DNA of 64,000 bases from the NCBI GenBank assembly GCA_964571795.1, contig CAZNDK010000002.1, positions 47,466 to 111,465 on the forward strand. Direction: 5' to 3'. Below are positions 17,402-63,995 of the stretch, in pieces. This stretch comes from an uncultured Gemmatimonadaceae bacterium. GTDB lineage: Bacteria > Gemmatimonadota > Gemmatimonadetes > Gemmatimonadales > GWC2-71-9. The notes below the pieces were generated by a model. It saw only the letters and a program-made list of their open reading frames with translations. It was not told where the DNA came from and made no database searches. A program made the position numbers and the translations under genes. The first letter of the stretch is position 1. Each line of letters opens with the position of its first letter.

Positions 17402-18126
17402 ATGGCGATGCCGATTGCCCACCTCCGTGCCTCCGCCGCCCTTCCGGTCGGCTACAAGGGTCCACGAGCCTCGATCCTCGTGGAGCTCAAGTTCGTTCCT
17501 GGGTTGACGGCCAAGGAACTTGCGGCCCGCCTCGGACTATCACTCAACGCGATCCGGCATCACCTCAAGGAACTCGAACTCGACGGCCTGCTGGCGTACG
17601 AGCGGGAGCAGCGCGGCGTCGGCGCTCCGGTGTTCGCCTACCGCCTTTCGCCGGCGGGCGAGCAGGTCTTTCCGCGCCGCTACGAGGCGACGCTGACCGA
17701 GGTGCTCGAGGCGCTGGTGGAGCGCGAGGGTCGTGAAGCGGTCGTCGGCGCGCTGGAGGCGCGGTACGCCGCCTTCCTCCACCGGCTCCCGGCCGACCTC
17801 GTCCAGCTCCCGGCCGAGCGGCGGCTGGACGCGGTGACCCGGCTCCTCCAGGAGGAGGGGTTCATGCCGGGGTGGGAAGGGTCGGCGGAAGGGGGGACGC
17901 TCACCGAGCACAACTGCGCCATCCGCGCCGTGGCCGAGCGCTTCCCGGAAATCTGCGCGGCCGAGGAGCGGTTCCTGAGCGCCGCCCTCGGGGCCTCCGT
18001 GGACCTCCGGGCCCACGTGCTCGACGGGTGCGCCGCCTGCGAATATCAGGTGCAGTTCACGCCACCGCTCCCGATCGGGATCGGGCGGCCGTCAGGGGGC
18101 CCCGAGCGGGTCCCGGGAGTCAACGC

Positions 18127-18130
<4 letters not shown>
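17402..18130 (+). CDS. sufR: SufR-like transcriptional regulator (ArsR-type wHTH plus Cys-containing C-terminal domain)
   Basis: w[29 protein letters not shown]-terminal cysteines HNC...EIC...DGCAAC. Stop overlaps the sufB start (ATGA). Alternative starts exist back to 17312. Confidence 0.65.
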
Positions 18131-19563
<1,433 letters not shown>

Positions 19564-19576
19564 GGAGAACACGCAC

Positions 19577-20335
19577 GTGCTTGAAATCAGAGACCTGACC
19601 GCCACCGCCGGCGGCACCGAAATCCTTCGCGGCATCAGCCTGACCGTCAACGCGGGCGAGGTGCACGCCATCATGGGCCCGAACGGCAGCGGCAAGAGCA
19701 CGCTGGCCCAGGTGCTCGCCGGCCACCCGGCCTACGAGGTCACCGGCGGCTCGGTCACGTACAGGGGGCAGGACCTCCTGGAGCTGGAGCCCGAGGAGCG
19801 CGCGCAGGCCGGCGTCTTCCTGGCGTTCCAGTACCCGGTCGAAATCCCGGGCGTCACCAACGCCTACTTCCTGCGGGCCGCCTACAACGCCAAGCGCAAG
19901 GCGCAGGGACTCGAGGAGCTCGACCCGATGGACTTCCTCGACCTGCTCGAGGACAAGCTGAAGCTGGTGGAGTGGGGCCCCGAGATCATGAGCCGCGCGG
20001 TCAATTCCGGCTTCTCCGGCGGCGAAAAGAAGCGGAACGAGATCCTCCAGATGGCGGTGCTCGAGCCGACGCTCGCCATCCTCGACGAGACCGACTCCGG
20101 CCTCGACATCGACGCGCTCAAGATCGTGGCCCACGGAGTCAACGCGCTCCGCCGCCCCGACAGCGCCACCATCGTGGTGACCCACTACCAGCGGCTTCTC
20201 GACCACATCGTGCCCGACTTCGTGCACGTCCTCGCCGGCGGCCGGATCGTGCGGTCGGGCGGCAAGGAACTGGCGCACGAGCTCGAGGCCCGCGGGTACG
20301 AATGGCTGACCGAGGCGGCGGGAGCCCCGGCGTGA
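19577..20335 (+). CDS. sufC: Fe-S cluster assembly ATPase SufC
   Basis: AAGGAGAA SD, GTG start. Walker A GPNGSGKST, signature FSGGEKKR, Walker B LAILDETDSGLD. Confidence 0.95.
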   Translation: MLEIRDLTATAGGTEILRGISLTVNAGEVHAIMGPNGSGKSTLAQVLAGHPAYEVTGGSVTYRGQDLLELEPEERAQAGVFLAFQYPVEIPGVTNAYFLRAAYNAKRKAQGLEELDPMDFLDLLEDKLKLVEWGPEIMSRAVNSGFSGGEKKRNEILQMAVLEPTLAILDETDSGLDIDALKIVAHGVNALRRPDSATIVVTHYQRLLDHIVPDFVHVLAGGRIVRSGGKELAHELEARGYEWLTEAAGAPA

Positions 20336-23424: not shown

Positions 23425-23859
23425 ATGCCGTACCCAGAGTCGTTGGTGGCCCCGATGCGGGCGGAGATGGTCCAGATGGGAGCTGCCGAGCTCCGGACGG
23501 TGGCTGAGGTGGACGCCGCCATCGGGAGCAGCACGGGCACCACCCTGGTGTTCGTGAATTCCGTCTGCGGCTGCGCCGCGGGCAATGCCCGGCCGGCCAT
23601 GAAGATGGCGCTGGGGCACGGCGTCCTGCCCGACCGGACGGTCACCGTGTTCGCGGGGCAGGATCTCGACGCGGTGGCCCGGGCCCGGAGCTATTTCGGG
23701 GAGTACCAGCCGAGTTCACCGTCGATCGCGCTGCTCCGCGAAGGCGAGGTCGTGCACTTCGTCCACCGCCACCAGATCGAGGGCCGGAGCCCGCAGGCCA
23801 TCGCCGCCGACCTGACCAAGGCGTTCGACACCCACTGCCGCGACTCCGTCCGCGCGTGA
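23425..23859 (+). CDS. bacilliredoxin-like protein (YphP/YqiW, DUF1094 family)
   Basis: VFVNSVCGCAAGNARP with the CGC redox motif. Family-typical length of 144 aa. GGAGA SD. Confidence 0.8.
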   Translation: MPYPESLVAPMRAEMVQMGAAELRTVAEVDAAIGSSTGTTLVFVNSVCGCAAGNARPAMKMALGHGVLPDRTVTVFAGQDLDAVARARSYFGEYQPSSPSIALLREGEVVHFVHRHQIEGRSPQAIAADLTKAFDTHCRDSVRA

Positions 23860-24137
23860 GCGGGCACGTCTTTCATCCCGGGCACCACGAGCTCCACGGC
23901 GTGACCGTGGTGCTCGACACCGCCGGGGCGCTCTGGGTGGGCCGGTTCGACTCCGTGACCCCGAAGGGGGTGCTGCTGCACGACGCGGGGTGCTTCCAGG
24001 ACGGCGTGACGGAGGGGACCCGCGAGGACTACCTCCGCAAGACGCTCAAGTTCGGGGTGCGGGCCACGCAAAAGAACGCGCTCATCCCGGAGGGGGAGGT
24101 GCGGGGGATACGGCAGCTGGCGGAGGTCGTGGGGTAG
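23856..24137 (+). CDS. small hypothetical protein with His-rich N-terminus
   Basis: GTG overlaps the upstream stop (GTGA). MSGHVFHPGHHELHG. Last gene of the suf cluster before the hairpin/T6 terminator. Confidence 0.5.
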   Translation: MSGHVFHPGHHELHGVTVVLDTAGALWVGRFDSVTPKGVLLHDAGCFQDGVTEGTREDYLRKTLKFGVRATQKNALIPEGEVRGIRQLAEVVG

Positions 24138-24151
24138 GAGCGGCCAGGGGC

Positions 24152-24225
24152 GAGGACTGAGGACTGAGGACTGAGGGCTGGCGACCGGGCACATGCCCTC
24201 AGTCCTCAGTCCTCAGTCCTTTTTT
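24152..24225 (+). terminator. (GAGGACT)3 perfect hairpin plus T6: GGACT-heptad element acting as an intrinsic terminator
   Basis: 24153-24178 pairs perfectly (26 bp) with 24195-24220. 16-nt loop. TTTTTT at 24220-24225. The last T is the first base of the convergent ferredoxin stop codon. Confidence 0.8.
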
Positions 24226-24440
24226 CAGGGCCAGACCTGGTCGCCGTGTTCGTCGATGAGGGTTATGGCGTCTACAGGACAGGCGCGGGCGGCGTCCAGG
24301 ACCAGTTCGTCCTCCGCCCCCTCCGGATCGACCACGACCGAGATGTCCTCGGAGTCGTGGGCAAAGACGTCGGGCGCGAGGCCGACGCAGTCGCCATAAC
24401 CCCGGCAAAGCGTCCGGTCGATCTTGATGGTGTACGGCAT
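24225..24440 (-). CDS. small single-cluster ferredoxin
   Basis: 71 aa from MPYTIKIDRTLCRGYGDCV...ACPVDAI. The track ORF starts at an upstream TTG. Confidence 0.8.
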   Translation of the reverse strand: MPYTIKIDRTLCRGYGDCVGLAPDVFAHDSEDISVVVDPEGAEDELVLDAARACPVDAITLIDEHGDQVWP

Positions 24441-26931: not shown

Positions 26932-27255
26932 TCTGGCACTTGCTTCCGTAGGGTCCGGTCAGCCTCCTCGGGTTGGTCCTCCGGGCCTGCAGTTCTCGCG
27001 CCCTCCGCGCCACGGTCGCTCCGGGGGACTCGAACTGACGGCCCTCCGGACCAATCCCTTCGTCGGCCGACCGCCAATGATCGATGCGATCGCGCCCCGA
27101 AGACCGGACTGCTCCGGAGGCACGTGAGTTCACGGGTTGCCTCTGTGCGGGATCCGTACGCCAGGTGTGAACTCCAGTGCCGGAGGAGCAGGCTGGTCGA
27201 GGGGCGCGGGAACGGAACTGCGTAGCGGCGCGAGCCATCCTTCTATCTTCCTTCC

Positions 27256-29115
27256 ATGCGATACGATGTCATCGTCATCGGCGGCGGCCATGCGGGCGCC
27301 GAGGCCGCGGCCCTCGCGGAGCGCGCGGGCGCCCGTACGCTGCTGCTCACGCAGAATCTCGAGACGATCGGCCAGATGTCCTGCAACCCCGCCATCGGCG
27401 GGATCGCGAAGGGCACGGTGGTGCGCGAGGTGGATGCGCTGGGCGGGGTCATGGGCCGGGCCACCGACCTGGCGCGTATCCAGTTCCGGATGCTCAATCG
27501 CTCCAAGGGGCCCGCGGTCTGGTCTCCACGGGCGCAGTGCGATCGTGCGCTGTACCGGCGCGCGGTGCGCCAGCTGCTCGAGGCCCGGCCCAATCTCCGG
27601 TTCGCGCAGGGCACGGCCGATTCCTTCCTGATGCGGGGCGGAAGGGTGGCGGGGGTCGTGACGAAGGAGGGGCTCACCTTCGAGGCACGCGCGGTGGTCC
27701 TCACCGCCGGCACCTTCCTTCGGGGAGCGATCCACCTCGGCCTGGACGCCCAGGTGCCGGCCGGTCGGGCCGGCGAGGCTCCATCGGTAGCGATCTCGGA
27801 AGCTATTGTGCAGCATGGTATTACACGAGAACGCTTCAAGACGGGCACCCCACCGAGGATTGACGGACGGAGCGTCGACCTTGAGCGACTGACGCGACAG
27901 GATGGCGACGGTGTGCCGTACTGGTTCAGTCAGTTCCATCGGGAGGAGCATCCGGCTCAATTGCCCTGCTACCTCACCTGGGCCGGCGCCGAAGTGAAGG
28001 AGATCATCCAGCGCCACCTCCTAGAGTCGGCGCTCTATGGCGGGGCGATCAGCGGACGGGGTCCGCGTTATTGCCCCTCGGTCGAGGACAAGGTCGTCCG
28101 GTTTCCCGATGCGGTTCGCCACCAGGTGTTCCTCGAGCCCGAGGGACTTGGCACCTCCGAGATGTACGTCAACGGGCTCTCGACGTCGCTTCCAGCAGCG
28201 GTTCAGCTGGCTTTTCTCAGGGCCGTGCCCGGGCTGGAGCGGGTCGAGATGACCCGCGCAGGCTACGCCATCGAGTACGACTACTTCCCTCCGACACAGC
28301 TCCATCCGACGCTGGAATCCCGCGCGTTGCCCGGGCTCTACTTCGCGGGGCAGGTGAACGGGACCACGGGCTACGAGGAAGCGGCCGGCCAGGGCGCGAT
28401 CGCTGGGTTGAACGCCGCGCTCGCCTGCAGGGATGAGGAACAGGTCGTGCTCTCCCGGAATGAAGCGATGATCGGTGTGCTGGTGGACGACCTGGTGCAC
28501 CGGGGGGTGGACGAGCCGTATCGGCTCTTCACCTCGCGGGCCGAATTCCGGATCCTCCTCAGGCAGGACAACGCCCTCAGGCGGATGTACCCCCTCGCAC
28601 GCCGGCTCGGACTCCTCTCCGAAGCCGAACTTCGAACCGCGGAGAGCCGATTCGAGGCGGAGGACCGTTCGGCCCGCGCGGCCGCTGAGACGACGATCGC
28701 CCCGGTGCTCGCCAATCCGATTCTCGAGGCCGCCGGAGAAACGGGCATCCAGGAGCCGGCCCGGGTGCGGGAGCTCTGCCGCCGCCCCGGGGTTGGACTC
28801 GGTACGCTGCTCTCGGCGGCCGGAATGGAGCTTGAGGCCGGGTCCGCGGAATGGGCGGATATCGAGATCAAGTACGAGGGCTATCTCGAGAAGGAGCGGG
28901 CCGCCGCCGGCCGCCTGGCGGAGCTGGACACGATGGACCTGCCGCCGGAGCTGGAGTACCACTCGATCCTCACGCTCTCGTGGGAGGCTCGCGAGAAGCT
29001 CTCCCTCGTCCAGCCAGCGTCCCTTGGGCAGGCGGGCCGAGTCCCCGGAGTCTCGCCGGCCGACCTCCAGAACCTGGCGTTCGAGGTTCTGCGCCGCCGT
29101 GCCCGTTTCACGTGA
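27256..29115 (+). CDS. mnmG: tRNA uridine 5-carboxymethylaminomethyl modification enzyme MnmG (GidA)
   Basis: FAD motif YDVIVIGGGHAGAEAA, GQVNGTTGYEEAAGQG. 619 aa. Confidence 0.95.
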   Translation: MRYDVIVIGGGHAGAEAAALAERAGARTLLLTQNLETIGQMSCNPAIGGIAKGTVVREVDALGGVMGRATDLARIQFRMLNRSKGPAVWSPRAQCDRALYRRAVRQLLEARPNLRFAQGTADSFLMRGGRVAGVVTKEGLTFEARAVVLTAGTFLRGAIHLGLDAQVPAGRAGEAPSVAISEAIVQHGITRERFKTGTPPRIDGRSVDLERLTRQDGDGVPYWFSQFHREEHPAQLPCYLTWAGAEVKEIIQRHLLESALYGGAISGRGPRYCPSVEDKVVRFPDAVRHQVFLEPEGLGTSEMYVNGLSTSLPAAVQLAFLRAVPGLERVEMTRAGYAIEYDYFPPTQLHPTLESRALPGLYFAGQVNGTTGYEEAAGQGAIAGLNAALACRDEEQVVLSRNEAMIGVLVDDLVHRGVDEPYRLFTSRAEFRILLRQDNALRRMYPLARRLGLLSEAELRTAESRFEAEDRSARAAAETTIAPVLANPILEAAGETGIQEPARVRELCRRPGVGLGTLLSAAGMELEAGSAEWADIEIKYEGYLEKERAAAGRLAELDTMDLPPELEYHSILTLSWEAREKLSLVQPASLGQAGRVPGVSPADLQNLAFEVLRRRARFT

Positions 29116-29119
29116 AACG
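29104..29119. promoter_or_regulatory. parS site 1 (CGTTTCACGTGAAACG)
   Basis: Perfect 16-bp palindrome matching the parS consensus tGTTNCACGTGAAACa except at the outer bases. Overlaps the mnmG stop codon. Confidence 0.85.
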
Positions 29120-29136
29120 GAGTCGAATCCGGCGAT

Positions 29137-29152
29137 TGTTTCACGTGAAACA
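29137..29152. promoter_or_regulatory. parS site 2 (TGTTTCACGTGAAACA)
   Basis: Perfect 16-bp palindrome, a full match to the parS consensus. Centre lies 33 bp from site 1. Confidence 0.9.
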
Positions 29153-29363
29153 ACAATTCAGCGACGCGGCCGCCAAGGATTACTTTTTTGCTATTTAAAT
29201 ATAACTTATTGTAAGACATAATTTTACGACTGATAGTTGCCGTGCTCGAGACTGTGGGCTCGTCGGCGCAGGTGCTCCGCGTCCTCGCCCCACGCCCCGC
29301 CTCCCCCTATATTGCGCTCCTCCCTACCCTTTCCGTCTTCGACCCCAGGCGCACACCCCGGAC

Positions 29364-30154
<791 letters not shown>

Positions 30155-30158
<4 letters not shown>

Positions 30159-31036
30159 GCGAAGCGCGTCGACTCGGTCGCGGGCTCGAGGCCCTGCTCG
30201 GCCCGGTCTCGAAGGAGCAGGCCGAAAAAGAGGGCGCGCTGCGCGAGCTGCCCGTCACCTCCATCCGCCCGAACCCGTTCCAGCCCCGCACCCGCGTGGA
30301 CGAGGAACCGCTCAAGGAGCTGGTGGCGAGCATCGAGGCCTCGGGCCTCCTGCAACCGGTGGTGGTGCGGCCCAAGGGCTCCACCTATGAATTGATCGCG
30401 GGCGAGCGCCGCTGGCGTGCCGTGCAGCGGCTCGGGTGGACGCGGATTCCCGCGGTCATCCGGGAGGCCGACGACCGGACGCTCCTCACCCTGGCGCTGA
30501 TCGAGAACCTCCAGCGCGACGATCTCTCTCCCATCGATGAGGCGCTCGGCTACCAGCGGCTGCAGGAGGAGTTCGGCGTGGCGCAGGCCGAGGTGGCGCG
30601 CCTGGTCGGGCGGGACCGCTCGACGGTGGCGAACCTGCTCCGCCTGCTCGCGCTGCCGGAGCCGGTGCGCGACTTGGTGGACCACGCCGCGCTCTCGGCG
30701 GGTCATGCACGCGCCCTCCTCGGCCTCACCGACGCGAAGCTGATCATCAAGCTCGCGCGCGAGGCGGTGGCCGAGGGATGGTCGGTGCGGGAGATGGAGG
30801 CGCGGGTCCGGCAGGGGCCGGCGAGCGCCAAGCGGCCGACCGCCAAGCGGCCGGCCCCGGGCCCGGCGAGCGCCGAGGTGCAGCGCGTCGAGGAGGTGCT
30901 CCGCAAGCGGCTCGGCACCGACGTGCGGGTCACGCAACGGCGGAAGGGGCGTGGCATCGTGCAGTTGCACTACTACTCGAACGACGATCTCGCCCGCCTG
31001 CTCGAAATCATCCTCGGCGCCCCGTTCGAGGGATGA
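30155..31036 (+). CDS. parB: chromosome partitioning protein ParB/Spo0J
   Basis: RRLGRGLEALLG N-terminus, ParB box GERRWRA, HTH region. GTG overlaps the parA stop (GTGA). Confidence 0.95.
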
Positions 31037-31830
31037 GTACGCCGCGGCCCCGCATCACGGTGATGGTGCACCGCGACGGGGAGCTCGAGTCGCGCACGCT
31101 TCGCATGCCCATCTGGCTGTTCCGGATCCTGGTGGTGGTGGGCACCGTCCTGTTGATGGGATTGCTGGTCCTCGGCGCGCTCTACGCGCCGCTCCTCAAG
31201 GCAGCGGCGAGCGTCCCGGGCCTCAGGAACGACGTGGCCCGGCTGGAGGCCGAAACGGCCAAGGTGCGTGAGCTCGCCGCCGCCCTGGACAGCGCCGAGC
31301 GCCGATACGGGCGGCTCCGGGAAATGGTCGGCGCGGACATCGTGCCCGACCCGGTGGCGCTGGCCTACTCGCTTCCGCTGGCACCCCCGGTGCGGGCGGC
31401 CCTGCCCGGCGTGCGGAGGGCGTTCGAGACCGGGCCCTCCCTGCCGAGCCACTGGCCGCTCGATCCGCCCGGCTACATCACGCGCGGCATCGTGGCGCCG
31501 GGCGGCACGGAGGAAGCCCACACCGGGCTCGACATCGCGGTCACCATCGGCACGCCAGTGCGCGCCGTCGGCGGCGGCAGCGTGGCCGAGGTCGGCAGCG
31601 ACGAGGAATACGGGCAGTTTGTCGTGGTCAGCCATCCCGAAGGTTACAAGACGAAGTACGGTCACCTGTCACGGGCGGTGGTCAGCCCGGGGCAGGCGGT
31701 CAACGCCGGCGAGGTTCTCGGACTCTCCGGCAATTCCGGGCGGTCTACCGCTCCCCACCTGCATCTCGAGATCCGTCGGGGCGATGAGACGATCGATCCG
31801 CTCACGATGGTGAAGGAGGACACCCAGTAA
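31033..31830 (+). CDS. M23-family metallopeptidase (membrane-anchored, coiled-coil N-terminal region)
   Basis: ATG overlaps the parB stop (ATGA). TM helix LFRILVVVGTVLLMGLLVLG. HTGLDIA and APHLHLEI zinc motifs. Confidence 0.85.
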   Translation: MSTPRPRITVMVHRDGELESRTLRMPIWLFRILVVVGTVLLMGLLVLGALYAPLLKAAASVPGLRNDVARLEAETAKVRELAAALDSAERRYGRLREMVGADIVPDPVALAYSLPLAPPVRAALPGVRRAFETGPSLPSHWPLDPPGYITRGIVAPGGTEEAHTGLDIAVTIGTPVRAVGGGSVAEVGSDEEYGQFVVVSHPEGYKTKYGHLSRAVVSPGQAVNAGEVLGLSGNSGRSTAPHLHLEIRRGDETIDPLTMVKEDTQ

Positions 31831-32237
31831 TGGCCATCTTTTCGAGCCCGCCGCGCGAGCCGGCGGCCACCAATCAGATGCGTCGGCGCACCGACCACAC
31901 GACGCTGTCCATCATCGCGAAGGACCTGACGGTCGTCGGCGACCTCACCACCGACGGCGTGGTGAAGATCGAAGGGACGGTGCGCGGGACCATTCGCGCC
32001 GGCACCCAGGCGCTGGTCGCTCCCGGGGCGGTGGTGCAGGGTGACGTGCACGCCGCCGAAGCGGTGATCGGCGGCCGGGTCGAGGGCAACGTGCACGCCA
32101 CCGACCGGGTCGAGGTGCAGGCCACCGCCCAGGTGGTGGGCGACGTGCTCACGCGACGGATCGTCGTCCTCGAGGGCGGCAGCGTCAACGGGTCGATCAA
32201 GATGGGATCGCCGCCGGAGCCCGGTCCGCTCGAGTGA
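31830..32237 (+). CDS. bactofilin (DUF583 polymer-forming cytoskeletal protein)
   Basis: Repetitive beta-helix pattern LTVVGDLTTDGVVKIEGTVRGTIRA...VEGNVHATDRVEV. ATG shares one base with the M23 TAA (TAATG). Confidence 0.85.
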   Translation: MAIFSSPPREPAATNQMRRRTDHTTLSIIAKDLTVVGDLTTDGVVKIEGTVRGTIRAGTQALVAPGAVVQGDVHAAEAVIGGRVEGNVHATDRVEVQATAQVVGDVLTRRIVVLEGGSVNGSIKMGSPPEPGPLE

Positions 32238-33193
32238 ACCTCCGAACCGCCCCCGCGGGGCTCCTGGCGGGCGCACTCCTCCTAGCGTGTGCGCCGCGGG
32301 AAGCGCCGCCGCCCTTCCGCGTCGCCCTCGTGACACCGGGCTCGGTGGCGGACGCCGCCTGGAACTCCGGGGCCTTCGCCGGGCTCGGGCAGATCCACGA
32401 TTCGCTCGGCGTGCCGGTGAGCCACGTGGAGGCGCGCACCCCCGCCGAGCAGGAAGAGGCGCTTCGGACCTACGCCGCGCAGGGCTACAACCTGGTGTTC
32501 GGGCACGGGTTCGAGTTCCAGGGGCCGGCGGAGCGGGTCGGGGCGGAGTATCCGTCGGTGGTGTTCATCATCACCTCGGGCGAGCGGGTCCAGGGGAACG
32601 TGGCCCCGCTGATCTTCCGCCTGAACGAGGCGAGCTACCTGGCGGGGATGGTGGCCGGGGGCATGACGAAGAGCGGCGTCATCGGGTTCGTGGGTGGGGT
32701 GGAACTGCCGCCGGTCCGCGATGCGGCGGAGGCCTGGGTGGCCGGCGCCCGCGCGGTGAATCCCCGAGTGCAGAGCCGCACGACCTACCTCAACAATTGG
32801 GACGACGCCGCGCTGGGCCGCGAGGCGGCCCGGGCGCTGATCCGGGTCGGCGCGGACATGCTGCACCACAACGCCGACGCCGCGGCCATCGGCGTGTTCC
32901 AGGCGGCGAAGGAAGCGCCCGGCGTGTACGTCTTCGGCGCGAACGCCGACCAGGCGTCCCTGGCGCCCGAACGCGTCCTCGGGTCGGCCGTGATCGACCT
33001 GCCCCGCGCCCTGCTCCTGGTGGCGCGCGACGTCCAGCTCGGCACCTTCACCCCGAAGGTGGAGTCGTTCGGGCTCGCCAGCGGCGTCGTGCGCTACGTG
33101 CCCAACCCCGCCCTCGACTCCCTGGTCCCCGACGCGCTCCGGGCACGAGTCCAGGCCGCGGAGGACAGCATCCGACAGCAGGGTGGCTCATGA
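32234..33193 (+). CDS. BMP-family (PnrA/Med-like) ABC substrate-binding lipoprotein
   Basis: GTG overlaps the bactofilin stop. Lipobox LLLAC. DAAWNSGAFAGL and GHGFEF motifs typical of basic membrane protein/nucleoside-binding proteins. Confidence 0.85.
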   Translation: MNLRTAPAGLLAGALLLACAPREAPPPFRVALVTPGSVADAAWNSGAFAGLGQIHDSLGVPVSHVEARTPAEQEEALRTYAAQGYNLVFGHGFEFQGPAERVGAEYPSVVFIITSGERVQGNVAPLIFRLNEASYLAGMVAGGMTKSGVIGFVGGVELPPVRDAAEAWVAGARAVNPRVQSRTTYLNNWDDAALGREAARALIRVGADMLHHNADAAAIGVFQAAKEAPGVYVFGANADQASLAPERVLGSAVIDLPRALLLVARDVQLGTFTPKVESFGLASGVVRYVPNPALDSLVPDALRARVQAAEDSIRQQGGS

Positions 33194-36504: not shown

Positions 36505-37421
36505 TGGAGCCACTCGCCGTGGCGGCGGACGTGCTGGTGGCGGCGGTCGGCATCGCCACGCCGCTCGCGCTCGCGGCCACCGGCGAGACCATCGCCGAGC
36601 GCTCGGGCGTGGTGAACCTGGGGATCGAGGGTGCGATGCTCTTCGGCGCCTTGGGCGGAGCCATCGGCGCCACGCTGGGTGGGCCGGCGGGAGGGCTGGC
36701 CCTCGGCGTGCTCGCCGGCGTCGCGGTCGCGGCGCTCTTTGCGGCGGTGGCGGTCGGCGCGGGAGCGGACCAGATCATCTCGGGCACCGCCGTGACGCTG
36801 GGCAGCGTGGGGCTGACGGGCACCATCTATCGGCAGTTTTACGGAGCCGCCGGCGTGGGCCTTTCCATTCCGACATTGGCCCCGGTGCCGATTCCCGGCC
36901 TGTCCGGCATCCCGCTGGTCGGCGCGGCGTTCTTCGCGCAACCGGTCACCACCTACCTGGCAATCGGGTTGATCGCGGCATCGTGGTGGGCTCTCTTCCG
37001 GACGCGGCCTGGCCTGGCGCTCCGTGCCGCGGGGGAGGATCCAGTGGCGGCGCGGGCCGCCGGCGTGCCGGTGCGGCTGACGCGGAGCGTGGCGGTGCTG
37101 TTGGGCGGCGCGTTCGCGGGGCTGGCGGGTGCGACGCTTGTCCTGGCCCAGGTCGGGACCTTCGCCGAGCGCATGACGGCGGGGCGCGGGTTCATCGCCA
37201 TCGCGATCGTCGTGCTGGGGCGCTGGAATCCGGTGGGCGCGGCGCTGGCCGCGCTGCTCTTCGGGCTGGCCACGGCGCTGCAGTTCGCCTTTCAGGCGGC
37301 GGGGCTGCGGGTGCCGTATCAGCTGTTCCTGATGTTCCCGTTCCTGCTCACGTTGCTTGCGCTGGCTGGGGTGGTCGGGCGGGTGAAGGCACCGGCGGGC
37401 TTGGGGAAGAGGGAGGAATGA
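36501..37421 (+). CDS. ABC transporter permease (BMP-system, YufQ-like)
   Basis: ATG overlaps the upstream stop (ATGA). ERSGVVNLGIEG motif. Multi-TM. Confidence 0.85.
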   Translation: MMEPLAVAADVLVAAVGIATPLALAATGETIAERSGVVNLGIEGAMLFGALGGAIGATLGGPAGGLALGVLAGVAVAALFAAVAVGAGADQIISGTAVTLGSVGLTGTIYRQFYGAAGVGLSIPTLAPVPIPGLSGIPLVGAAFFAQPVTTYLAIGLIAASWWALFRTRPGLALRAAGEDPVAARAAGVPVRLTRSVAVLLGGAFAGLAGATLVLAQVGTFAERMTAGRGFIAIAIVVLGRWNPVGAALAALLFGLATALQFAFQAAGLRVPYQLFLMFPFLLTLLALAGVVGRVKAPAGLGKREE

Positions 37422-37570
37422 GAGGAATGAGAGGAAGGAGAAAAGGACTTGGGACTTGGAGGGGAGGAATGAGAAAAGAGACAGGAGGAGGTCCGCACCA
37501 AGGCAGCCTCCTTTCTCCTGTCTCCTTCTGCCCCTCCTAGTCCCTTAGTCCCTTTCCCCTTCCTCTACTC
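37405..37570. repeat. GGACT-heptad long hairpin element, copy 1 (purine arm / loop / pyrimidine arm)
   Basis: Purine arm 37405-37491, loop 37492-37506, pyrimidine arm 37507-37565. Core GGACTTGGGACTTGGAGGGG faces CCCCTCCTAGTCCCTTAGTCC. Fills the gap between convergent stops at 37421 and 37576. Confidence 0.8.
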
Positions 37571-37575
37571 TTCTA

Positions 37576-38016
37576 CTATTTCACTTCATCCGTGTCGACC
37601 TGCCCCGTCACCTTTCTCGTGATGATCGACCAGCCCGAGCCAACAGTCAGGATGAGCGTCACGGAAACCAGGACCAGGTGTACGATGCCGGAGGTGCTGC
37701 CGGGGGCCAGCACCTTCCAGCTGATCAGCAACCAGATCAGCACGCCACAAAGGGCCAGGCCCAGTACCACCCCGACGATCCCGAGGGACCGCCGGGTGGC
37801 CTGGATGAGGAACACCCAACCGATGAGGAGAACGAGTCCGACCAACACCTTCAGCGGTCCGATCCCGGTGATGGTGGTCGGGTCCCTGACGATGGGCAGG
37901 ATGGCCCAGTGGAACCAGGACCTGCCCAGGGGATTGAAGGTTCCGTACACCAGCAGCAGTGCCATCACGAACCTGCCCAGCACCGCCGTCCAATTGATCC
38001 CCCTGGAACCAGCCAT
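37576..38016 (-). CDS. hypothetical integral membrane protein (4 TM)
   Basis: 146 aa, ATG start, four hydrophobic helices. Somewhat lower GC than its neighbours. Confidence 0.6.
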   Translation of the reverse strand: MAGSRGINWTAVLGRFVMALLLVYGTFNPLGRSWFHWAILPIVRDPTTITGIGPLKVLVGLVLLIGWVFLIQATRRSLGIVGVVLGLALCGVLIWLLISWKVLAPGSTSGIVHLVLVSVTLILTVGSGWSIITRKVTGQVDTDEVK

Positions 38017-42855: not shown

Positions 42856-42893
42856 GAGGACTGAGGGCCGAGGACTGAGGACTGAGGACTGAG
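42856..42893 (+). repeat. one-armed (GAGGACT)n heptamer array, 5.4 units
   Basis: GAGGACT GAGGGCC GAGGACT GAGGACT GAGGACT GAG. Starts 2 nt after the upstream stop and ends 10 nt before the GMC gene ATG. Confidence 0.85.
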
Positions 42894-42903
42894 AAAGAGC
42901 GCA

Positions 42904-44595
42904 ATGTCAGACATATTGGATTTCGTCATCGTTGGGTCAGGGTTCGGTGGGAGCGTTTCGGCCCTCCGGTTGACCGAAAAGGGATACCGCGTGCGGGTGC
43001 TGGAGCGCGGGAAGCGCTTCCGCGACGAGGACTTTGCCCGCACCAACTGGAACGTCCGGAAGGCCCTGTGGGCGCCGGCGCTCCGCTGCTTCGGCATCCT
43101 GCAGATCAGCCCATTCCGCGACGTCTTCGTCTTGCACGGCGCGGGCGTCGGGGGCGGGAGCCTGGGCTATGCCAACGTCCTGATGGCGCCGGGCGATGAG
43201 ATGTTCCAGGCGCCGGCCTGGCGCCACCTTGCCGACTGGAAGTCGCTGCTCGACCCGCACTACGACACCGCGCGCCGGATGCTCGGCGTGGCAGTGAACC
43301 CGCGCACCTGGCCGGCCGACATCCTGCTCAAGGAAATCGCCACCGAGCTCGGCACGGCGGACACCTGGCAGTCCACGCCGGTCGGCACCTTCTTCGGGGT
43401 GCCCGACGAGGAGGGCGAGGAGGTGCCCGACCCCTACTTCGGCGGCGAGGGCCCGGCTCGCTCGGGGTGCATCCATTGCGGCGGCTGCATGGTGGGGTGC
43501 CGGTACAACGCCAAGAACACACTGGTCAAGAATTACCTCTACCTGGCCGAGAAGTGGGGCGCGGAGGTGGAAGCGGAGGCGGAGGTGCGGGACATCGTGC
43601 CGCTCCCGGCCGGGCAGCCCGACGGGGCGCGCTACGAAGTGGTGTACCGCTCGGCGTCCGCACTCCTGTTCAAGGGGGAGCGGCGAATCCGCACCCGCAA
43701 CGTGATCGCCGCCGCCGGGGCCCTCGGCACGCTCCGGCTCCTCTTCCGCTGCCGGGACGTGACGGGGTCCTTGCCGAAGATTTCCCAGCGACTGGGCGAC
43801 CTGGTCCGCACCAACAACGAGTCGCTGCTCGGCGTCATCGCGCGCGACGACACGGCGGACTACTCGCAGGGCATCGCCATCACCTCCATCGTGCACGCCG
43901 ACCCGATCACCACGATCGAGCCGGTGCGCTACTCGGCGGGCTCCTCGATGATGCGGCTCCTGACCGGCCCGATCATCGACGGCGGGAGCGGGCTCTCGCG
44001 GCTGGCGCGCTCGGTGTGGGAAATCCTCTCGCGCCCCGCCGACTTTGCCCGCACCCACTTCCGGTCGCGCTGGGCCCAGCGCACCACGATCATCCTCGCC
44101 ATGCAGACCGACGACACCAAGCTCCGGTTCCGGTTCGGGCGGAGTTTCTTCACTCTGTTCCGGCGGGGGCTGGTGTCGCACCCGGACCCCGAGAGCGGGC
44201 ATCCGTCGGCCATCGAGATCAGCCGCAAGGTGACGCGGCGGTTCGCCGAGAAGATCGACGGCATTCCTGCGGGCTCGATCAACGAGAGCCTGCTCGGCAT
44301 CCCGATGACGGCGCACATCCTGGGCGGCTGCCCGTTCGGCACCAGCGCAGCCGACGGGGTGGTGGGCCTCGACTGCCAGGTGCACAACTATCCCGGCCTG
44401 TACGCAATTGATGGCTCGATCGTGCCGGCCAATCCGGGCGTCAACCCGAGCCTCACCATCACCGCGCTGGCGGAATACGCCATGAGCCGGGTGCCCGACA
44501 AGCCGGGCGCCAAGGCGCGCACTCCGATCGGTGTGGAGGGGACAGCAGCAGGGGCTCGGGGCGAAGCGTTGGCCGCAGCGATGACCGGGGACTGA
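42904..44595 (+). CDS. GMC-family FAD oxidoreductase (cholesterol oxidase-like)
   Basis: FAD motif DFVIVGSGFGGSVSALRLTEKGYRVRVLERG. C-terminal HILGGCPFG and DGSIVPANPGVNP. Confidence 0.85.
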   Translation: MSDILDFVIVGSGFGGSVSALRLTEKGYRVRVLERGKRFRDEDFARTNWNVRKALWAPALRCFGILQISPFRDVFVLHGAGVGGGSLGYANVLMAPGDEMFQAPAWRHLADWKSLLDPHYDTARRMLGVAVNPRTWPADILLKEIATELGTADTWQSTPVGTFFGVPDEEGEEVPDPYFGGEGPARSGCIHCGGCMVGCRYNAKNTLVKNYLYLAEKWGAEVEAEAEVRDIVPLPAGQPDGARYEVVYRSASALLFKGERRIRTRNVIAAAGALGTLRLLFRCRDVTGSLPKISQRLGDLVRTNNESLLGVIARDDTADYSQGIAITSIVHADPITTIEPVRYSAGSSMMRLLTGPIIDGGSGLSRLARSVWEILSRPADFARTHFRSRWAQRTTIILAMQTDDTKLRFRFGRSFFTLFRRGLVSHPDPESGHPSAIEISRKVTRRFAEKIDGIPAGSINESLLGIPMTAHILGGCPFGTSAADGVVGLDCQVHNYPGLYAIDGSIVPANPGVNPSLTITALAEYAMSRVPDKPGAKARTPIGVEGTAAGARGEALAAAMTGD

Positions 44596-44614
44596 GGACT
44601 GAGGACTGAGGGAG
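44587..44614 (+). repeat. one-armed (GAGGACT)n heptamer array, 4 units
   Basis: GGGGACT GAGGACT GAGGACT GAGGGAG. Contains the GMC gene stop codon (44593-44595) and ends 19 nt before the next ATG. Confidence 0.85.
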
Positions 44615-44633: not shown

Positions 44634-45119
44634 ATGACGTTGACGCTCACCTCCACCGCGTTCGAGCACGGCGGCGAAATTCCCGCGCGCTGCACCTGCG
44701 AGGGGAAGAATGCTGCCCCCGACCTGGCCTGGAGTGGCGTGCCGGCGGGAACGAAGAGCCTGGCGCTCATCGTGGACGATCCCGACGCGCCCGACCCCAC
44801 GGCGCCGAAGCGGACCTACGTGCACTGGGTGCTGTACGACATGCCGCCGGACACGAAGGGACTGCCGGAGGGCGTCACGTCGGCAGGCCTGCCGGCGGGC
44901 GCGCGCGAGGGGCTCAACGACTGGAAGCGCACCGGCTACGGCGGTCCCTGTCCGCCGATCGGCCGCCACCGGTATTTTCACAAGCTCTACGCGCTCGACG
45001 TGACCCTGCCCGACCTCGGGACGCCGGGCAAGCCGGCGCTCGAGGCGGCCATGCAGGGCCACGTGCTCGCCAAGGCGGAATTGATGGGCACCTACCAGAA
45101 GAAGGGATCGACACGATGA
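44634..45119 (+). CDS. YbhB/YbcL-family PEBP (Raf kinase inhibitor-like) protein
   Basis: SD GGGAGGGG. LIVDDPDAP, HWVLYD, GYGGPCPPIGRHRYFHKLYALD. Confidence 0.85.
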   Translation: MTLTLTSTAFEHGGEIPARCTCEGKNAAPDLAWSGVPAGTKSLALIVDDPDAPDPTAPKRTYVHWVLYDMPPDTKGLPEGVTSAGLPAGAREGLNDWKRTGYGGPCPPIGRHRYFHKLYALDVTLPDLGTPGKPALEAAMQGHVLAKAELMGTYQKKGSTR

Positions 45120-54264: not shown

Positions 54265-54292
54265 GAGGACTGAGGACTGAGGTCTGGGGACT
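54265..54292 (+). repeat. one-armed GGACT-heptad array, 4 units
   Basis: GAGGACT GAGGACT GAGGTCT GGGGACT, in the divergent region between 54244 (-) and 54367 (+). Confidence 0.8.
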
Positions 54293-57343: not shown

Positions 57344-58904
57344 CCTCCCCGCACTCCGGCTGCCGACCCGGACCTACGCCGGGTACGCGCTGGCCCTGCT
57401 GGCGCTCCTCAACCTGCTGAGCTACGTCAACCGCAACGTGCTGTTTGCGCTGGTCCCGCCGATCGAGTTCGAGCTGGGCCTCACCGATACGCATATTGGA
57501 TGGATCGCCTCCGCCTTCGTGCTCCTCTTCTCGGTGGCGGTGTTCCCCTTCGGCGTGCTGAGCGACCTCCGCTCCCGGCGCGCCGTGGCGGCGGCCGGCG
57601 TGGTGGTCTGGAGCATCTTCGCCTTCCTGGCCGGCCTGTCCCGCGGCTTCTGGGGACTCTTCCTTTTCCGGGCGGCGGTCGGCATCGGGGCCGCGGCCTT
57701 CACCGCGGCAGCCGCCTCGCTCGTGGCCGATTACTTCCCCGGGCGCCGGCGCGCGGTGGCGCTCGGCGTCTTCTCCGCCGGCATCCCCATCGGCGGGGTG
57801 ATGGGCATCGCCCTCGGCGGGCAACTGGACGAGCTCTACGGATGGCGCATCGCCATGATGGCGGTGGCGGTGCCGGGCCTCTTGCTCGCGGCACTGGTGG
57901 CCCGGCTCACCGATCCGAGCCGCCCGCCCCCGACCCTCACGGTCCGCGAATATTGGCGGCAGCTGGAAATGGGCGCCGCCGGTGCATTCCGGACCGCGTG
58001 GCCACTCCTCCTCGGCGCGGGAGCCGGCGGCCTGGCCGCCTGGGTGCTCGACCGCCGTTTCGGAGCCACCTCCACGCTCGACATGGCGGCGCTGGCCAGC
58101 GGCATCGGCGTCGGGCTGGCGTGGAATCTCGTGCTGGTGGTCCGGCGGAACCGGCGCACCGACGGCAGCTTCGACTTTACGCCCACCGGCAGCGTCAACG
58201 ACGCCCTCACCGAAATGCGGCTCGCGGTGGATACCGTGCTCCGCACGCCTACCCTCAAGTACCTGTTCGTGGGCGGGGCGCTGGTGTCGTTCGGCATGAA
58301 CGGGCTGGTGGGCTGGGCGCCGACGTTCATGTCCCGGACGCTCGGACTCACCGTGGCGCAGGGCACGCTGCTGCTGGGTCAGTGGGGACTGCTGGCGGGG
58401 ACGGCGGGCACGCTCGCGGGCGGGTTCCTGGCGGACTGGCTGGGAAAGTTCACCGGCCGGGGGCGGATGCTGGTGTCGTCGCTCGGCCTGCTGGTGGGCG
58501 GACCGCTGGCCATCTGGCTCCTTGCTGTGCGCGACCTCGGCACCTTCGTGCCGATCTTCGCCGTGGCCTTCTTCTTCCTGACCCTGTACAACGGCCCGGT
58601 CATCGCGGCGGTGTTCGACGTGGCGCCGGCCCGGATCGGTGCCACCGTCGTCGGGGCCTACCTGCTCTTCATCCACGTGGCGGGCGACGCCATTGCACTC
58701 CCGCTCGTGGGGTTCCTGTCCGACCGCTTCGGCATCGACCGGGCCATCTTCATCCTGCCATCGGCGGCGATGGCCGGCGGCGGCGTGCTGCTGCTCGGCG
58801 TCAAGACTGTGCTGCGCGACATGAGCTTCGTGGCGGCGAGGACGACGGCGACGCACCCGGTGGTGAGGACGACAAGTGAGGGGAGGAAGGAAAAAGAGGA
58901 CTAG
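57333..58904 (+). CDS. MFS transporter
   Basis: GTG with GGGAG upstream. Overlaps the DHS gene end by 11 nt. 12-14 TM. SDLRSRR loop motif. The stop lies inside repeat copy 2. Confidence 0.85.
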
Positions 58905-59011
58905 GGACTAGGAGGGGCGGAAAGAGAAAAGAGAAAGGTGTTGGTCCGAGCGCCTCTTTTCTCCTTCCTCCTTGAACCTCTCCAAGTCCCAAGTCCTTTT
59001 TCTCCTTCCTC
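58878..59011. repeat. GGACT-heptad long hairpin element, copy 2 (inverted relative to copies 1 and 3)
   Basis: Purine arm 58878-58938 (..AGGACTAGGGACTAGGAGGGGCGGAAAGAG..), loop 58939-58952, pyrimidine arm 58953-59011 (..CTCTCCAAGTCCCAAGTCCT..). Overlaps the MFS stop and touches the csoR stop. Confidence 0.8.
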
Positions 59012-59364
59012 TATCGAGCCGACCGGTACATCAACTCCACCAACTCATCGTACATCGCTCCCGCCTGCTCCTCGCTGCCCGAGCGGATGGCGCCGGCGGC
59101 GCAGTGCTCGAGGTGGTTGCGGAAGAGCACCCGCGCCACTCCCCGCAGTGCCTCGTGCACCGACGACACCTGGGTCAGGACGTCGGCGCAGTAGCGCTCC
59201 TCCTCCACCATCTTCTGCAGCCCGCGGACTTGCCCCTCAATGCGACGGAGCCGGGTGAGCGCGGCGGCCTTGAGCTCGGGGTTCACCGCCACCGCGTGGG
59301 TGCCGTCGCCGGGGCGGGCGCACGCGCAGGGGGCGAAGGCGTCGTTGCTGGCGGTGTCCATCAT
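59011..59364 (-). CDS. csoR: CsoR/RcnR-family metal-sensing repressor
   Basis: [25 protein letters not shown]...HLEHC (Cys-His-Cys ligand pattern). ATG overlaps the copA stop. Confidence 0.85.
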
Positions 59365-61691
59365 GTCCTCCGGAGCCGCAGGCTGTTGGTCACGACGGAC
59401 ACGCTGCTCACGGCCATCGCCGCCGCGGCCATCGTGGGGGTGAGGAGGATGCCGAACATCGGGTAGAGCGCGCCGGCCGCCACGGGGATGCCCACCACGT
59501 TGTAGGCAAAGGCCCAGAAGAGGTTCTGCCGGATGACGCGGAGCGTGCGCCGCGCGAGGCGGACCGCCTCGGGCACGCCGAGCAGGTCGCCCCGCATCAG
59601 CGTGACGTCTCCCGCCTCGACGGCCACGTCGGTGCCGGTGCCGATGGCGATGCCGACGTCGGCCTGCGCCAGGGCGGGCGCATCGTTGAGCCCGTCGCCC
59701 ACCATCCCGACCACCCTGCCCTCCCCCTGCAGCCGCTGGATTTCATCCCGCTTGTGCTCCGGCAGCACCTCAGCGACCAGCCGCGTGATGCCGACCTGCC
59801 GGGCGACGGCGTCCGCCGTCGTCCGCCCGTCGCCGGTGAGCATCACGACCTCGAGGCCGAGCGCCTCGAGCCCGCGCACCGCCTCGGCGCTGCTGGGCTT
59901 GATGGGATCGGCGACCGCGATGATCCCCGCCGCTTCGCCGCCGATGGCCACGAGCACCGGCGTGGCGCCGCGGGCGGCGAGCTGCTCCGCCTCCGCGGCG
60001 AGCGGCGCGGGGTCCACGCCCCAGTCGGCGAGCATGGCGCGATTGCCGACCAGCACGCCCCGTCCGTCCACGACCCCCACGGCGCCCTTGCCCGGCGTCA
60101 CCTGGAATTCCGCGACGGCGGGAATGGTCAGGCCGCGCTCCCGGGCCGCGGCCACGATCGCCTCGCCGAGGGGGTGCTCGCTCATCTGCTCGAGGGCGGC
60201 CGCCGCCGCGAGCATTGCGGAGTCGTTCCCTGCCCCGAGCGCCCAGACGTCGGTGACCGCCGGGCTCCCCGCCGTGATGGTGCCGGTCTTGTCGAGCACT
60301 ACGACCTGGAGCTCCGCCATGCGCTGGAGGATGTCGCCCCCCTTGAACAGCACGCCCCGCTCCGCGCCGCGGCCGGTGGCCACCATGACGGCGGTCGGCA
60401 CGGCGAGGCCCATGGCGCAGGGACAGGCGATGATCAGCACGGTGACCGCCGCGGCCAGTGCCCGCACCACGCGCGGTTCCGGTCCGAGGAAATACCATAC
60501 CGCGAAGGTGCCGAGGGCGATGACGATGACCACCGGCACGAAGACGGCGGCGATCCTGTCGGAGAGCTGCTGGATTGGCGCCTTGGCGCCCTGCGCCTCG
60601 CGCACCATGCGGATGATCTGCGCCAGCACGGTGTCGCCGCCCACGCGGGTGGCGCGCATGCGGATGGCGCCGGCACGGTTGAGCGTGGCGCCGACCACCG
60701 AACTCCCCGCGCGCTTGGCCACCGGCGTCGGCTCGCCGGTCAGCATCGCCTCGTCCACCGAGGTGGTGCCCTCGAGCACCACGCCGTCCACCGGGATGGT
60801 CTCGCCGGGGCGGACCAGCAGCTCATCCCCGGTGCGGACCTGGTCCAGCGGAAGATCGGTCACTTCCCCGCCCCGCACGACGTGCGCGGTATCGGGCCTG
60901 AGCGCCACGAGCTTCCGGATGGCGGCGGAGGTGCGCCCCTTGGCGCGGGCCTCGAGGTAGTTGCCGAGGAGGATGAGCGCGATGATGGCGATGACGGCTT
61001 CGTAGTACACGTGCGGCTCGACGCCGCGGGCCACGAAGTACGGGGAGCCGAGCGTCATGGCCAGGCTGAACAGGAACGCCGCGCCGGTGCCGACCGACAC
61101 GAGGGTGTTCATGTCGGCGCCGCCGTGCCGGGCCGCGGCCCACGCGCGCACGTAGAAGTGGCGCCCGGCCCAGAAGACGATGGGCAGCGTGAGCAGCAGG
61201 AGCGTCCAGCGCCAGGCGTCGGCGCTCACGGTGAAGAGCCCGGGCGCCACCGATCGGAGCGCACCGGCGATCGGCATCATGAGGTGCATGAGCGGGTCGG
61301 AGGCGCCCTGCGCGGCGGCCGCCTCGCCGAGTGGAATGCCGATGAGCATGGCCACGGCCGCGGCGACGAGGCTGACCGTGACCTTCCGCCTGAGCGTGGC
61401 GCGCTCGGCGGCCATCCGGAGCTCGTCGGCGGTTTCCGCCTCGCCGGCGGCCAGCTCGGGGCGGGGCAGCTCGGCGCCGTAGCCGGTGTCCTTGATGGCG
61501 GCCACCAGCGCGTCGAGCGAGGAGACCGCCGGGTCGAACTCCACCGTGGCGGAGTTGGTCATCAGGTTCACGTTGGCCGACGCCACGCCGGGAGCACGCT
61601 CCAGCGTGCGCTGGATGCGTGCGCTGCAGGCGGCGCAGGTCATCCCGGTGACCGGGATGGTGGCGCGCTCGGTGGCGGTGGCCGTGCTCAT
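59361..61691 (-). CDS. copA: copper-translocating P1B-type ATPase
   Basis: HMA domain [38 protein letters not shown]. Confidence 0.95.
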
Positions 61692-63869: not shown

Positions 63870-63995
63870 GAAGGAGAAAGGGGACTTGGGACTTGGAGGG
63901 GTTCGAGGAGATAAGGAGAAATGTGGGTCGATCACCCCCGCCTCTCTCCTTCCTCTTTCCGCCCCTCCAAGTCCATAGTCCCTTTCTTCTTGACC
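63870..63995. repeat. GGACT-heptad long hairpin element, copy 3
   Basis: Purine arm GAAGGAGAAAGGGGACTTGGGACTTGGAGGGGTTCGAGGAG.. from 63870. Pyrimidine arm ..CCGCCCCTCCAAGTCCATAGTCCCTTTCTTC.. runs to about 63995. Starts 7 nt after the GAF gene stop and abuts the window end. Confidence 0.75.

Follow-up and report, generated by a model that had tools for sequence, protein, structure and literature searches.

The suf operon of an uncultured Gemmatimonadaceae bacterium ends in a long hairpin (positions 24152 to 24225, plus strand) whose arms are tandem copies of the heptanucleotide GAGGACT and of its complement AGTCCTC. The operon lies in a 64,000-nucleotide stretch of contig CAZNDK010000002.1, and "the window" below means the whole of that stretch. 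We consider this hairpin to be probably a Rho-independent terminator built from an expanded heptad repeat. The hairpin itself is real and far beyond chance, and it is well supported that its arms are a slippage-prone, lineage-specific heptanucleotide simple-sequence repeat (SSR) that has expanded in both arms. The analysis follows up a sequence-only reading in which the hairpin was first pointed out, and that reading is mentioned where the results bear on its claims.

Anatomy and fold of the suf hairpin

On the plus strand, the letters from 24152 to 24225 are, in order, GAGGACTGAGGACTGAGGACTGAGGGC, TGGCGACCGGGCACAT, GCCCTCAGTCCTCAGTCCTCAGTCCT and TTTTT. Within them a repeat finder delimits a perfect inverted repeat with arms at 24153-24178 (AGGACTGAGGACTGAGGACTGAGGGC) and 24195-24220 (GCCCTCAGTCCTCAGTCCTCAGTCCT), each of 26 nt and 100% complementary to the other, with 16 nt between them. 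It is the longest among the perfect inverted repeats listed for the window. Folding of the plus-strand RNA gives a minimum free energy of -74.5 kcal/mol (z = -9.7), a stability reached by 0 of 200 dinucleotide shuffles; the fold pairs G24152 with U24221 as a wobble and adds four apical pairs, leaving a 6-nt loop and a total of 31 pairs. The minus-strand RNA folds with -68.3 kcal/mol (z = -11.0) and the single-stranded DNA with -38.2 kcal/mol (z = -9.5). The repeat finder and the RNA fold thus bear out the 26-bp perfect stem, the 16-nt loop and the terminal G-T wobble that the sequence-only reading had described; of the stem strings quoted there, the first runs to 27 letters rather than 26, since it starts at 24152.

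The repetitive nature of the arms is equally plain. Tandem Repeats Finder assigns period 7 to both, with 4.1 and 3.4 copies, and the 14-mer GAGGACTGAGGACT, searched with at most two mismatches, is matched 16 times in the window against 0.55 matches expected. The T6 tract said to follow the stem was found at 24220-24225; its first T doubles as the last base of the stem, and five T's lie beyond the perfect stem. Because the G+C content of the window is 70%, T runs are rare: its plus strand holds eight runs of at least five T's and three of at least six, with about 0.75 T6 expected from composition. The convergent ferredoxin gene ends at 24225-24227, and the T run therefore touches its stop codon. 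The final T, T24225, does belong to that codon, of which it is the base with the lowest coordinate, but on the coding strand it is the third base (the complement of the A of TGA) and not the first, as had been stated.

Scanning of the whole window against Rfam returned nothing at the gathering threshold, and a search of the window for tRNA and tmRNA genes found none. An Rfam identity for the hairpin was rejected after a permissive scan, in which microRNA-precursor-like matches appeared below threshold only and on both strands, as is expected of generic long-hairpin noise.

The hairpin as a probable terminator

When the anatomy is placed into transcriptional context, a role in termination suggests itself. 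A stable, GC-rich hairpin is followed immediately by a U-rich tract, and it stands where a transcription unit ends, past the final stop codon. Its stem begins 14 nt beyond the stop of the last co-directional gene of the suf cluster, and the next gene is convergent. Gene calls and Pfam matches agree with the earlier claim that the hairpin closes a suf cluster, which here comprises sufB, sufC, sufD, sufS, sufU, a Disulph_isomer-family gene and a gene for a 93-amino-acid protein. In plus-strand transcripts, a GC-rich hairpin of 27 to 31 bp with a U5-6 tract would bring about Rho-independent termination of the suf operon and could protect its 3' end. The extreme length of the stem may then stem from concerted repeat expansion in both arms and not from a functional requirement. 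RNase III, an enzyme that cuts double-stranded RNA of about two helical turns, would be expected to act on a perfect duplex of this length as well. The perfect register of the arms, which includes the non-heptad GGGC/GCCC, argues for selection for pairing or for a mechanism that copies one arm from the other.

Transcripts of the ferredoxin gene would meet the hairpin 4 nt past the stop codon and without a U-tract, so that it may serve them at best as a weak terminator or as an mRNA-end structure. In E. coli, terminators lying a few bases after a stop codon are repressed by ribosomes (PMC4824070), and termination of the ferredoxin transcript is therefore doubtful.

The element shares with intrinsic terminators the GC-rich hairpin with an immediate U-run, the location shortly past the last stop codon of an operon and the setting between convergent genes. 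It differs from the usual ones in its stem of 26 to 31 bp, in arms made of tandem heptads and in having no 5' A-tract; it is therefore not a symmetric bidirectional terminator. Intrinsic terminator stems typically have 7-9 bp, and one of 15 bp has been called extraordinary and resists antitermination (TerR, PMC10325885). Measured against these values the stem is, as the sequence-only reading held, far longer than usual, and long-stem intrinsic terminators are known to be functional (PMC10325885).

The same junction in relatives

Orthologous junctions were collected through exact-protein look-ups and a protein-anchored metagenome scan (80 loci). We define the clade as the loci whose 93-amino-acid protein is at least 79% identical to that of the window, and the identities given below refer to this protein. 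Repeat copy number differs even between near-identical genomes. At L211 (95%) the heptad is again GAGGACT; the 5' arm has three units and the 3' arm has two, and they form a 14-bp stem with another loop and with the T-run kept. L222 (86%) reads GAGGACT GCGGACT GGGGACC ... GTCCCCA GTCCTCA GACCTTTT. Degenerate hairpins containing GGACY are present at L212, L214, L124, L225 and L226 (79-88%), and in the first three the stop codon of the 93-amino-acid gene often lies inside a GGACTGA unit. A plain 12-bp GC palindrome overlaps both stop codons at L126 and L220 (87-88%); at L218, L219, L221 and L224 (81-90%) the stop codons themselves overlap, with neither spacer nor hairpin; and L125 and L223 (82-83%) have no ferredoxin gene and no hairpin, the junction of L125 folding with z = +0.7. 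These changes of copy number in 7-nt steps, together with substitutions at orthologous junctions, are the behavior of a slippage-prone simple repeat.

The window locus itself was recovered in three metagenome assemblies of one strain (L001-L003), identical across the hairpin, and no within-strain length polymorphism was seen among these three. An exact-flank metagenome scan for strain variants (AGTCCTTTTTTCAGGGCCAGAC) gave no matches.

With clade members included, 42 distinct junctions at which the ferredoxin gene is convergent were compared. Their spacer is at most 6 nt long in 10 cases, 7-31 nt and mostly unstructured in 12, and at least 41 nt in 20, and 19 of these 20 long spacers form a hairpin. 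RNAalifold finds a common 14-pair helix in eight clade members, with compensatory changes at 6 pairs; we set little store by this covariation, since the repeat units permit alternative alignments. At the long spacers structure may be kept while sequence changes, but the shortest spacers make up almost a quarter of the junctions, four close relatives among them. Hairpins unrelated to the heptad recur in distant Gemmatimonadota (about 50-55% identity), where a canonical terminator, a GC hairpin followed by T4-8, abuts the ferredoxin stop codon (L240, L272, L284). Terminators of the A-tract/hairpin/T-tract kind are found where the downstream gene is a different one (L270, L274, L279, L285).

Across the phylum (L218-L297), the spacer between the 93-amino-acid and ferredoxin genes has a bimodal length: one group measures 6 nt or less, and its stop codons sometimes overlap, while the other measures about 55-90 nt. 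Spacers of the latter size nearly always carry one strong hairpin.

Heptad arrays and long hairpins elsewhere in the window

Seven loci of the heptad family are present in the window, each at a gene junction (Table 1). Recurrence of the units as one-armed arrays at 42856, 44587 and 54265 had been noticed from the letters alone, and all three arrays are indeed found among the 16 matches to GAGGACTGAGGACT; each has GAGGACT on the mRNA-sense strand. Comparison with three syntenic relatives (L215-L217) reveals how changeable they are. The gene upstream of the first array has an orthologue in relatives with the Pfam domains PI-PLC_X and Rv2075c_cat, and at this PI-PLC/GMC junction the window and the three relatives have spacers of 49, 42, 28 and 28 nt, or 5.5, 4.5, 2.5 and 2.5 units. 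The array at 44587 is missing from the three relatives, which have spacers of 10-17 nt. The array at 54265 differs in every genome compared, with variable orthologous arrays in L215 and L217.

Long hairpins do exist at 37405, 58878 and 63870, with folding energies of -99, -79 and -80 kcal/mol (z between -4.9 and -7.3), although the 7-nt GGACT period that had been ascribed to them is not consistent: only about two GGACT-type heptads per arm (GGACTTG, GGACTAG, GGGACTT) stand amid 9-nt and other periods. In the first of them, about 180 nt long, blocks of different short repeats (three copies of GAGGAATGA, two of GGACTTG) mirror each other in the two arms. Just 9-17 nt with GGACTGA units separate the BPD_transp_2 and DUF6524 genes in the three relatives, which implies that the 154-nt structure of the window grew in place. 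In the second element, the stop codon TAG of the MFS transporter gene (58902-58904) is contained in a GGACTAG unit, and the purine-rich arm encodes the last residues of the protein (ending in EGRKEKED). With this stop codon and that of the GMC oxidoreductase (44593-44595) both lying inside units, the repeat defines the C-terminus of both proteins. All three hairpins with readable context in the window stand exactly between convergent stop codons.

Stop codons inside heptad units (GGACTGA, GGACTAG) are also seen in L212, L214 and L124 and at one of the junctions compared in L215-L217. A minus-strand gene for a 117-amino-acid protein has its stop codon where the hairpin at 58880-59013 ends, and this gene overlaps by 4 nt the start of a P-type ATPase-like gene for 776 amino acids (59011-61691). 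From reading the sequence by eye, we take the 117-amino-acid protein to resemble metal-sensing repressors of the CsoR/RcnR type.

Distribution of the heptad across phyla

The exact 21-mer (GAGGACT)3, searched in one genome per species, has at least 120 matches in more than 10 phyla. Among the matches listed are Acidobacteriota, Chloroflexota, Gemmatimonadota, filamentous cyanobacteria, several proteobacterial classes, Planctomycetota, Bacteroidota and other phyla; Okeania, Coleofasciculus, Microcoleus and Egbenema are among the cyanobacteria. In viral contigs the 21-mer occurs at 28 loci and two control heptads of the same composition at 7 and 48 loci; each of these counts exceeds the chance expectation for a 21-mer by orders of magnitude. 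Of 1123 arrays in loci that total about 1 Mb, moreover, 396 have period 7, the commonest repeat class, and 245 of these are not GAGGACT. Since the control heptads behave similarly and period 7 dominates, the wide distribution of GAGGACT can be attributed to a general abundance of heptad repeats. This general abundance is in line with Mrazek et al. (2007), in whose work, as summarized in PMC4679880 and PMC4692102, heptanucleotide repeats are generally abundant in bacteria. The notion of GAGGACT as a special cross-phylum heptad was rejected on these grounds, and horizontal spread or a dedicated recognition system was dropped, the general abundance of heptads being sufficient. Among the papers open to search, GAGGACT in any rotation had no bacterial report, only unrelated primer and eukaryotic matches.

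Orientation regularities

Pairs and one-armed arrays were drawn from the window and from loci L004-L210, which are the genome representatives and viral contigs among the matches listed; the counts in this section apply to that set. The independent GAGGACT pairs with arms no more than 120 nt apart number 33; each has the order (GAGGACT)n, spacer, (AGTCCTC)n, and the reverse order occurs 0 times. When all heptad classes are taken together, the purine-rich (G-rich) arm comes first in 80 pairs and the pyrimidine-rich arm in 13; with one vote per locus and class the count is 75 versus 13 (75/88, binomial p about 1e-11), and for arms with a clear composition bias it is 65 versus 5. The pairs with reverse topology are divergent genes, each with a sense array just upstream of its own start. 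A purine-first topology is compatible with a terminator origin, because terminators of the A-tract/stem/T-tract kind share it.

Fixed topology in all 33 listed pairs and inverted-repeat structure at several intergenic sites might also bring to mind a mobile element of the miniature inverted-repeat transposable element (MITE) or repetitive extragenic palindrome (REP)/REPIN type, copied by a transposase. The suf element is, like MITEs and REP/BIME/REPIN sequences, intergenic, hairpin-forming and repeated within a genome. Unlike them, it has nothing conserved but the heptad. The spacers of GAGGACT pairs range from 9 to 113 nt and are unrelated between genomes and within one genome, as in Blastocatellia SSF51 (L004, L016, L048, L090), where a MITE would have a common internal sequence, and the four hairpins of the window likewise share none. 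Where REP or REPIN units are imperfect palindromes of 20-40 nt, single arms here are direct heptad arrays and not palindromic (no search of the window for RAYT was made). At orthologous sites the arms differ in length by 7-nt steps, a sign that they grew where they stand and were not inserted, and the few cases of opposite topology are explained by the divergent genes with their sense arrays. We consider mobility barely credible, and regard the unrelated spacers and the in-place growth as ruling out a MITE or REPIN.

One-armed arrays, whose strand was assigned in high-GC loci with genes called from third-position GC, follow a rule of their own. Between co-directional genes, 21 GAGGACT arrays are in sense and 5 in antisense orientation, four of the latter coming from one locus, and the arrays frequently overlap or abut the upstream stop codon. 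The repeat (GAGGACT)3 has TGA in all three frames and GAGG in each unit, and its complement is open in all frames. Possible causes of the sense bias are accordingly three: the stop codons, the Shine-Dalgarno-like content and the avoidance of C-rich Rho-loading RNA.

With so strong a sense bias, with arrays lying between a stop codon and the next start and with GAGG, the Shine-Dalgarno core, in every unit, one could picture the heptads as RNA binding sites (for a CsrA-like protein, S1 or the 30S subunit) and the hairpin as a sequestered form that regulates translation or stability of the neighboring genes; a comparable role has been proposed for the TAACTGA repeats of Beggiatoaceae (PMC4679880). 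This appears very unlikely to us. Copy number and sequence drift freely in close relatives and some arrays are absent there, the genuine Shine-Dalgarno sequences are found downstream of the arrays, with a conservation independent of theirs, the hairpin leaves none of the motifs unpaired, and no candidate binding protein was identified.

It is conceivable, though we think it rather improbable, that the orientation rules across phyla reflect a selected and so far undescribed RNA-level role of heptad arrays. Such a role could be that of a cassette which stops translation in all three frames and which might also offer Shine-Dalgarno-like sites to the gene that follows or exclude C-rich Rho-loading sequence from the transcripts of operons. 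In that case the hairpin form would possibly be the terminating or silenced state of the cassette.

Terminator or neutral by-product

What speaks for a terminator, besides the anatomy, is the hairpin in 19 of the 20 long spacers, the canonical terminators of distant Gemmatimonadota at that junction, the missing hairpin of L125, which has no ferredoxin gene, and the setting of the readable hairpins of the window between convergent stop codons. Several considerations weigh against it. The usual terminator has a stem of about 5-15 bp and a loop of 3-8 nt; the suf hairpin has 26 pairs (31 in the fold), a stem three times the usual length, and 16 nt between its arms. It is not flagged by a consensus terminator scan, which we ascribe to a limit of the tool, as the scan allows loops of 3-8 nt only. 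A consensus scan of 18 kb found 3 canonical terminators versus 5.7 in shuffled sequence, so that canonical intrinsic termination is not obviously the norm in this genome. Several clade members have a weak or absent T-run (tails CGTCCGTA and CGTCCGTT), and the covariation count comes from 8 sequences with an ambiguous alignment of repeat units. The junctions with spacers of at most 6 nt (10/42) include four close relatives (81-90%) with overlapping stop codons and no hairpin, in which the hairpin is evidently dispensable. The terminator role is, finally, one that we infer from anatomy and from relatives.

The close relatives without a spacer also make a largely neutral origin a serious rival. 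In that explanation, sense-oriented, purine-rich arrays accumulate after stop codons by replication slippage, and where two such arrays converge they are complementary and form an unselected hairpin. This would account for the predominance of sense arrays (21 versus 5), often over the upstream stop codon, for the restriction of hairpins in the window to convergent junctions, for the gain and loss of arrays among relatives, for relatives that lack any spacer, and for the commonness of heptad arrays of whatever sequence. What it explains less readily is that the arms are complementary in register over 26 bp, GGGC/GCCC included, and that the long elements mirror different motif blocks over more than 60 nt, as two independently growing arrays would not. 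Chance would hardly produce the T6 run, which L211 has retained; across the phylum, unrelated hairpins turn up at the suf/ferredoxin junction; and in other genomes paired arrays lie mostly between co-directional and not convergent genes. A neutral by-product is therefore to be taken seriously but seems unlikely to us, and the Rho-independent terminator is the explanation that we retain.

Comparison with known heptanucleotide repeats

The arms of the suf hairpin consist of head-to-tail 7-nt units beyond chance, and their copy number changes in unit steps, as is characteristic of long SSRs. They resemble the bacterial long heptanucleotide SSRs of Mrazek et al. (2007), as portrayed in PMC4679880 and PMC4692102, in being tandem, mostly intergenic, patchy in distribution and variable in copy number. 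Neither the GAGGACT unit nor a Gemmatimonadota host was found for such repeats in our literature search, which sets the present case apart from those described.

A parallel is offered by the GGGAATC repeats of Xanthomonas (Rehm et al. 2015, PMC4692102), which are intergenic, lie near the upstream gene, include 70-75 convergent opposite-strand pairs able to form stem-loops, and vary in array length among related species at one junction. The base composition (G3 A2 C1 T1) and the inverted, convergent pair lying close together are shared with the suf element. The Xanthomonas units contain GGG tracts, form G-quadruplexes in vitro and have no strand preference, with 30-35% on each strand (PMC4692102); GAGGACT, in contrast, has GG only, and the one-armed arrays here are sense-biased. 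A G-quadruplex reading for GAGGACT was set aside, as the unit has GG runs only and the duplex is far more stable.

In Nostoc, arrays of the heptamer GGGGA(C/T)T are found inside genes more often, and few of them are paired (PMC4692102). GGGGACT is one base from GAGGACT; host phylum, GC content and pairing differ. This cyanobacterial heptamer is reportedly the one named STRR1 (CCCCAGT), said to go back to Mazel et al. in 1990.

The TAACTGA repeats of marine Beggiatoaceae, cyanobacteria and Bacteroidetes lie in sense orientation just upstream of start codons, and one set among 170 is inverted (MacGregor 2015, PMC4679880). A heptad ending in ACTGA, sense orientation upstream of starts and a patchy cross-phylum distribution are features in common, a likeness that holds for the one-armed arrays only. 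The TAACTGA unit is AT-rich and without a Shine-Dalgarno-like core, unlike GAGGACT, and the suf element is an inverted pair.

Gene context

Table 1. Positions in the window of the suf genes, the parts of the suf hairpin, and the other arrays and hairpins of the heptad family
Feature	Positions	Strand	Remarks
SufB (SUFBD_core)	17872-19563	+	
SufC	19577-20335	+	
SufD, SufS (Aminotran_5), SufU (NifU_N)	after SufC	+	
Disulph_isomer-family protein gene	23425-23859	+	
Last gene of the suf operon, conserved hypothetical protein of 93 amino acids	23856-24137	+	Stop TAG 24135-24137
5' arm, purine-rich: (GAGGACT)3 + GAGGGC	24152-24178	+	Starts 14 nt past the stop of the 93-amino-acid gene
Inter-arm spacer, 16 nt	24179-24194	+	Fold adds 4 pairs, leaving a 6-nt apical loop
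3' arm, pyrimidine-rich: GCCCTC + (AGTCCTC)-type units	24195-24221	+	T24221 able to pair with G24152
T6 run	24220-24225	+	Would be the U-tract of plus-strand transcripts; also in L211
4Fe-4S single-cluster ferredoxin gene (Fer4_13, Fer4_15), convergent	24225-24440	-	Stop 24225-24227; longest open reading frame to 24455
Long purine-arm/pyrimidine-arm hairpin	37409-37587	+	Convergent junction, second BPD_transp_2 permease (stop 37419-37421) to DUF6524 (stop 37576-37578)
One-armed sense array, about 5.5 units	42856-42893	+	Between the stop of a 707-amino-acid gene and the GMC oxidoreductase start
One-armed sense array	44587-44611	+	Stop codon of the GMC oxidoreductase (TGA, 44593-44595) supplied by the first unit; start of the following gene at 44634
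One-armed sense array	54265-54292	+	Divergent intergenic region upstream of a DUF481 gene (start codon 54367)
Long purine-arm/pyrimidine-arm hairpin	58880-59013	+	Convergent junction, MFS transporter gene to a 117-amino-acid minus-strand gene
Long purine-arm/pyrimidine-arm hairpin	63871-63991	+	After a plus-strand gene ending at 63863; window ends downstream

The 93-amino-acid protein encoded just upstream of the hairpin has 367 homologues, and those with a source name all belong to Gemmatimonadales or Gemmatimonadota. It is conserved across Gemmatimonadota and specific to that phylum, and a comparison with Pfam matched no domain. Its homologues (P0001-P0120) have an invariant His-rich N-terminus, GHVFHPGH..H..HG. 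Possibly the protein is an accessory factor in Fe-S cluster assembly that has yet to be described.

Downstream of the suf cluster, at 27256-33193, follow genes for gidA/mnmG, parA, parB, a peptidase M23 and a bactofilin, recognized as such by synteny with L125 and L214. A neighborhood of this kind usually lies close to the origin of chromosome replication. The 324-nt gap between an ABC-2 membrane protein gene and the gidA/mnmG-like gene contains, at 27032-27198, a pair of imperfect inverted repeats that overlap, with arms of 35 nt and 32 nt (77-78% complementary).

Implications

What is new here is a heptanucleotide inverted pair that is placed and shaped like an intrinsic terminator, in a phylum without an earlier description; it looks unusual but is in essence an ordinary combination of known things, and only the orientation rules might lead further. 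For genome analysis, heptad arrays can displace the stop codons that are predicted and so lead gene callers astray, and they are likely collapse points in short-read assemblies. For the biology of these bacteria, the suf junction is a clear and datable example of how a slippage-prone 7-nt repeat builds, lengthens or erases a terminator-like hairpin among close relatives. The sense orientation and the purine-first topology can be tested genome-wide, and might explain why heptad repeats are tolerated at gene junctions in many phyla.

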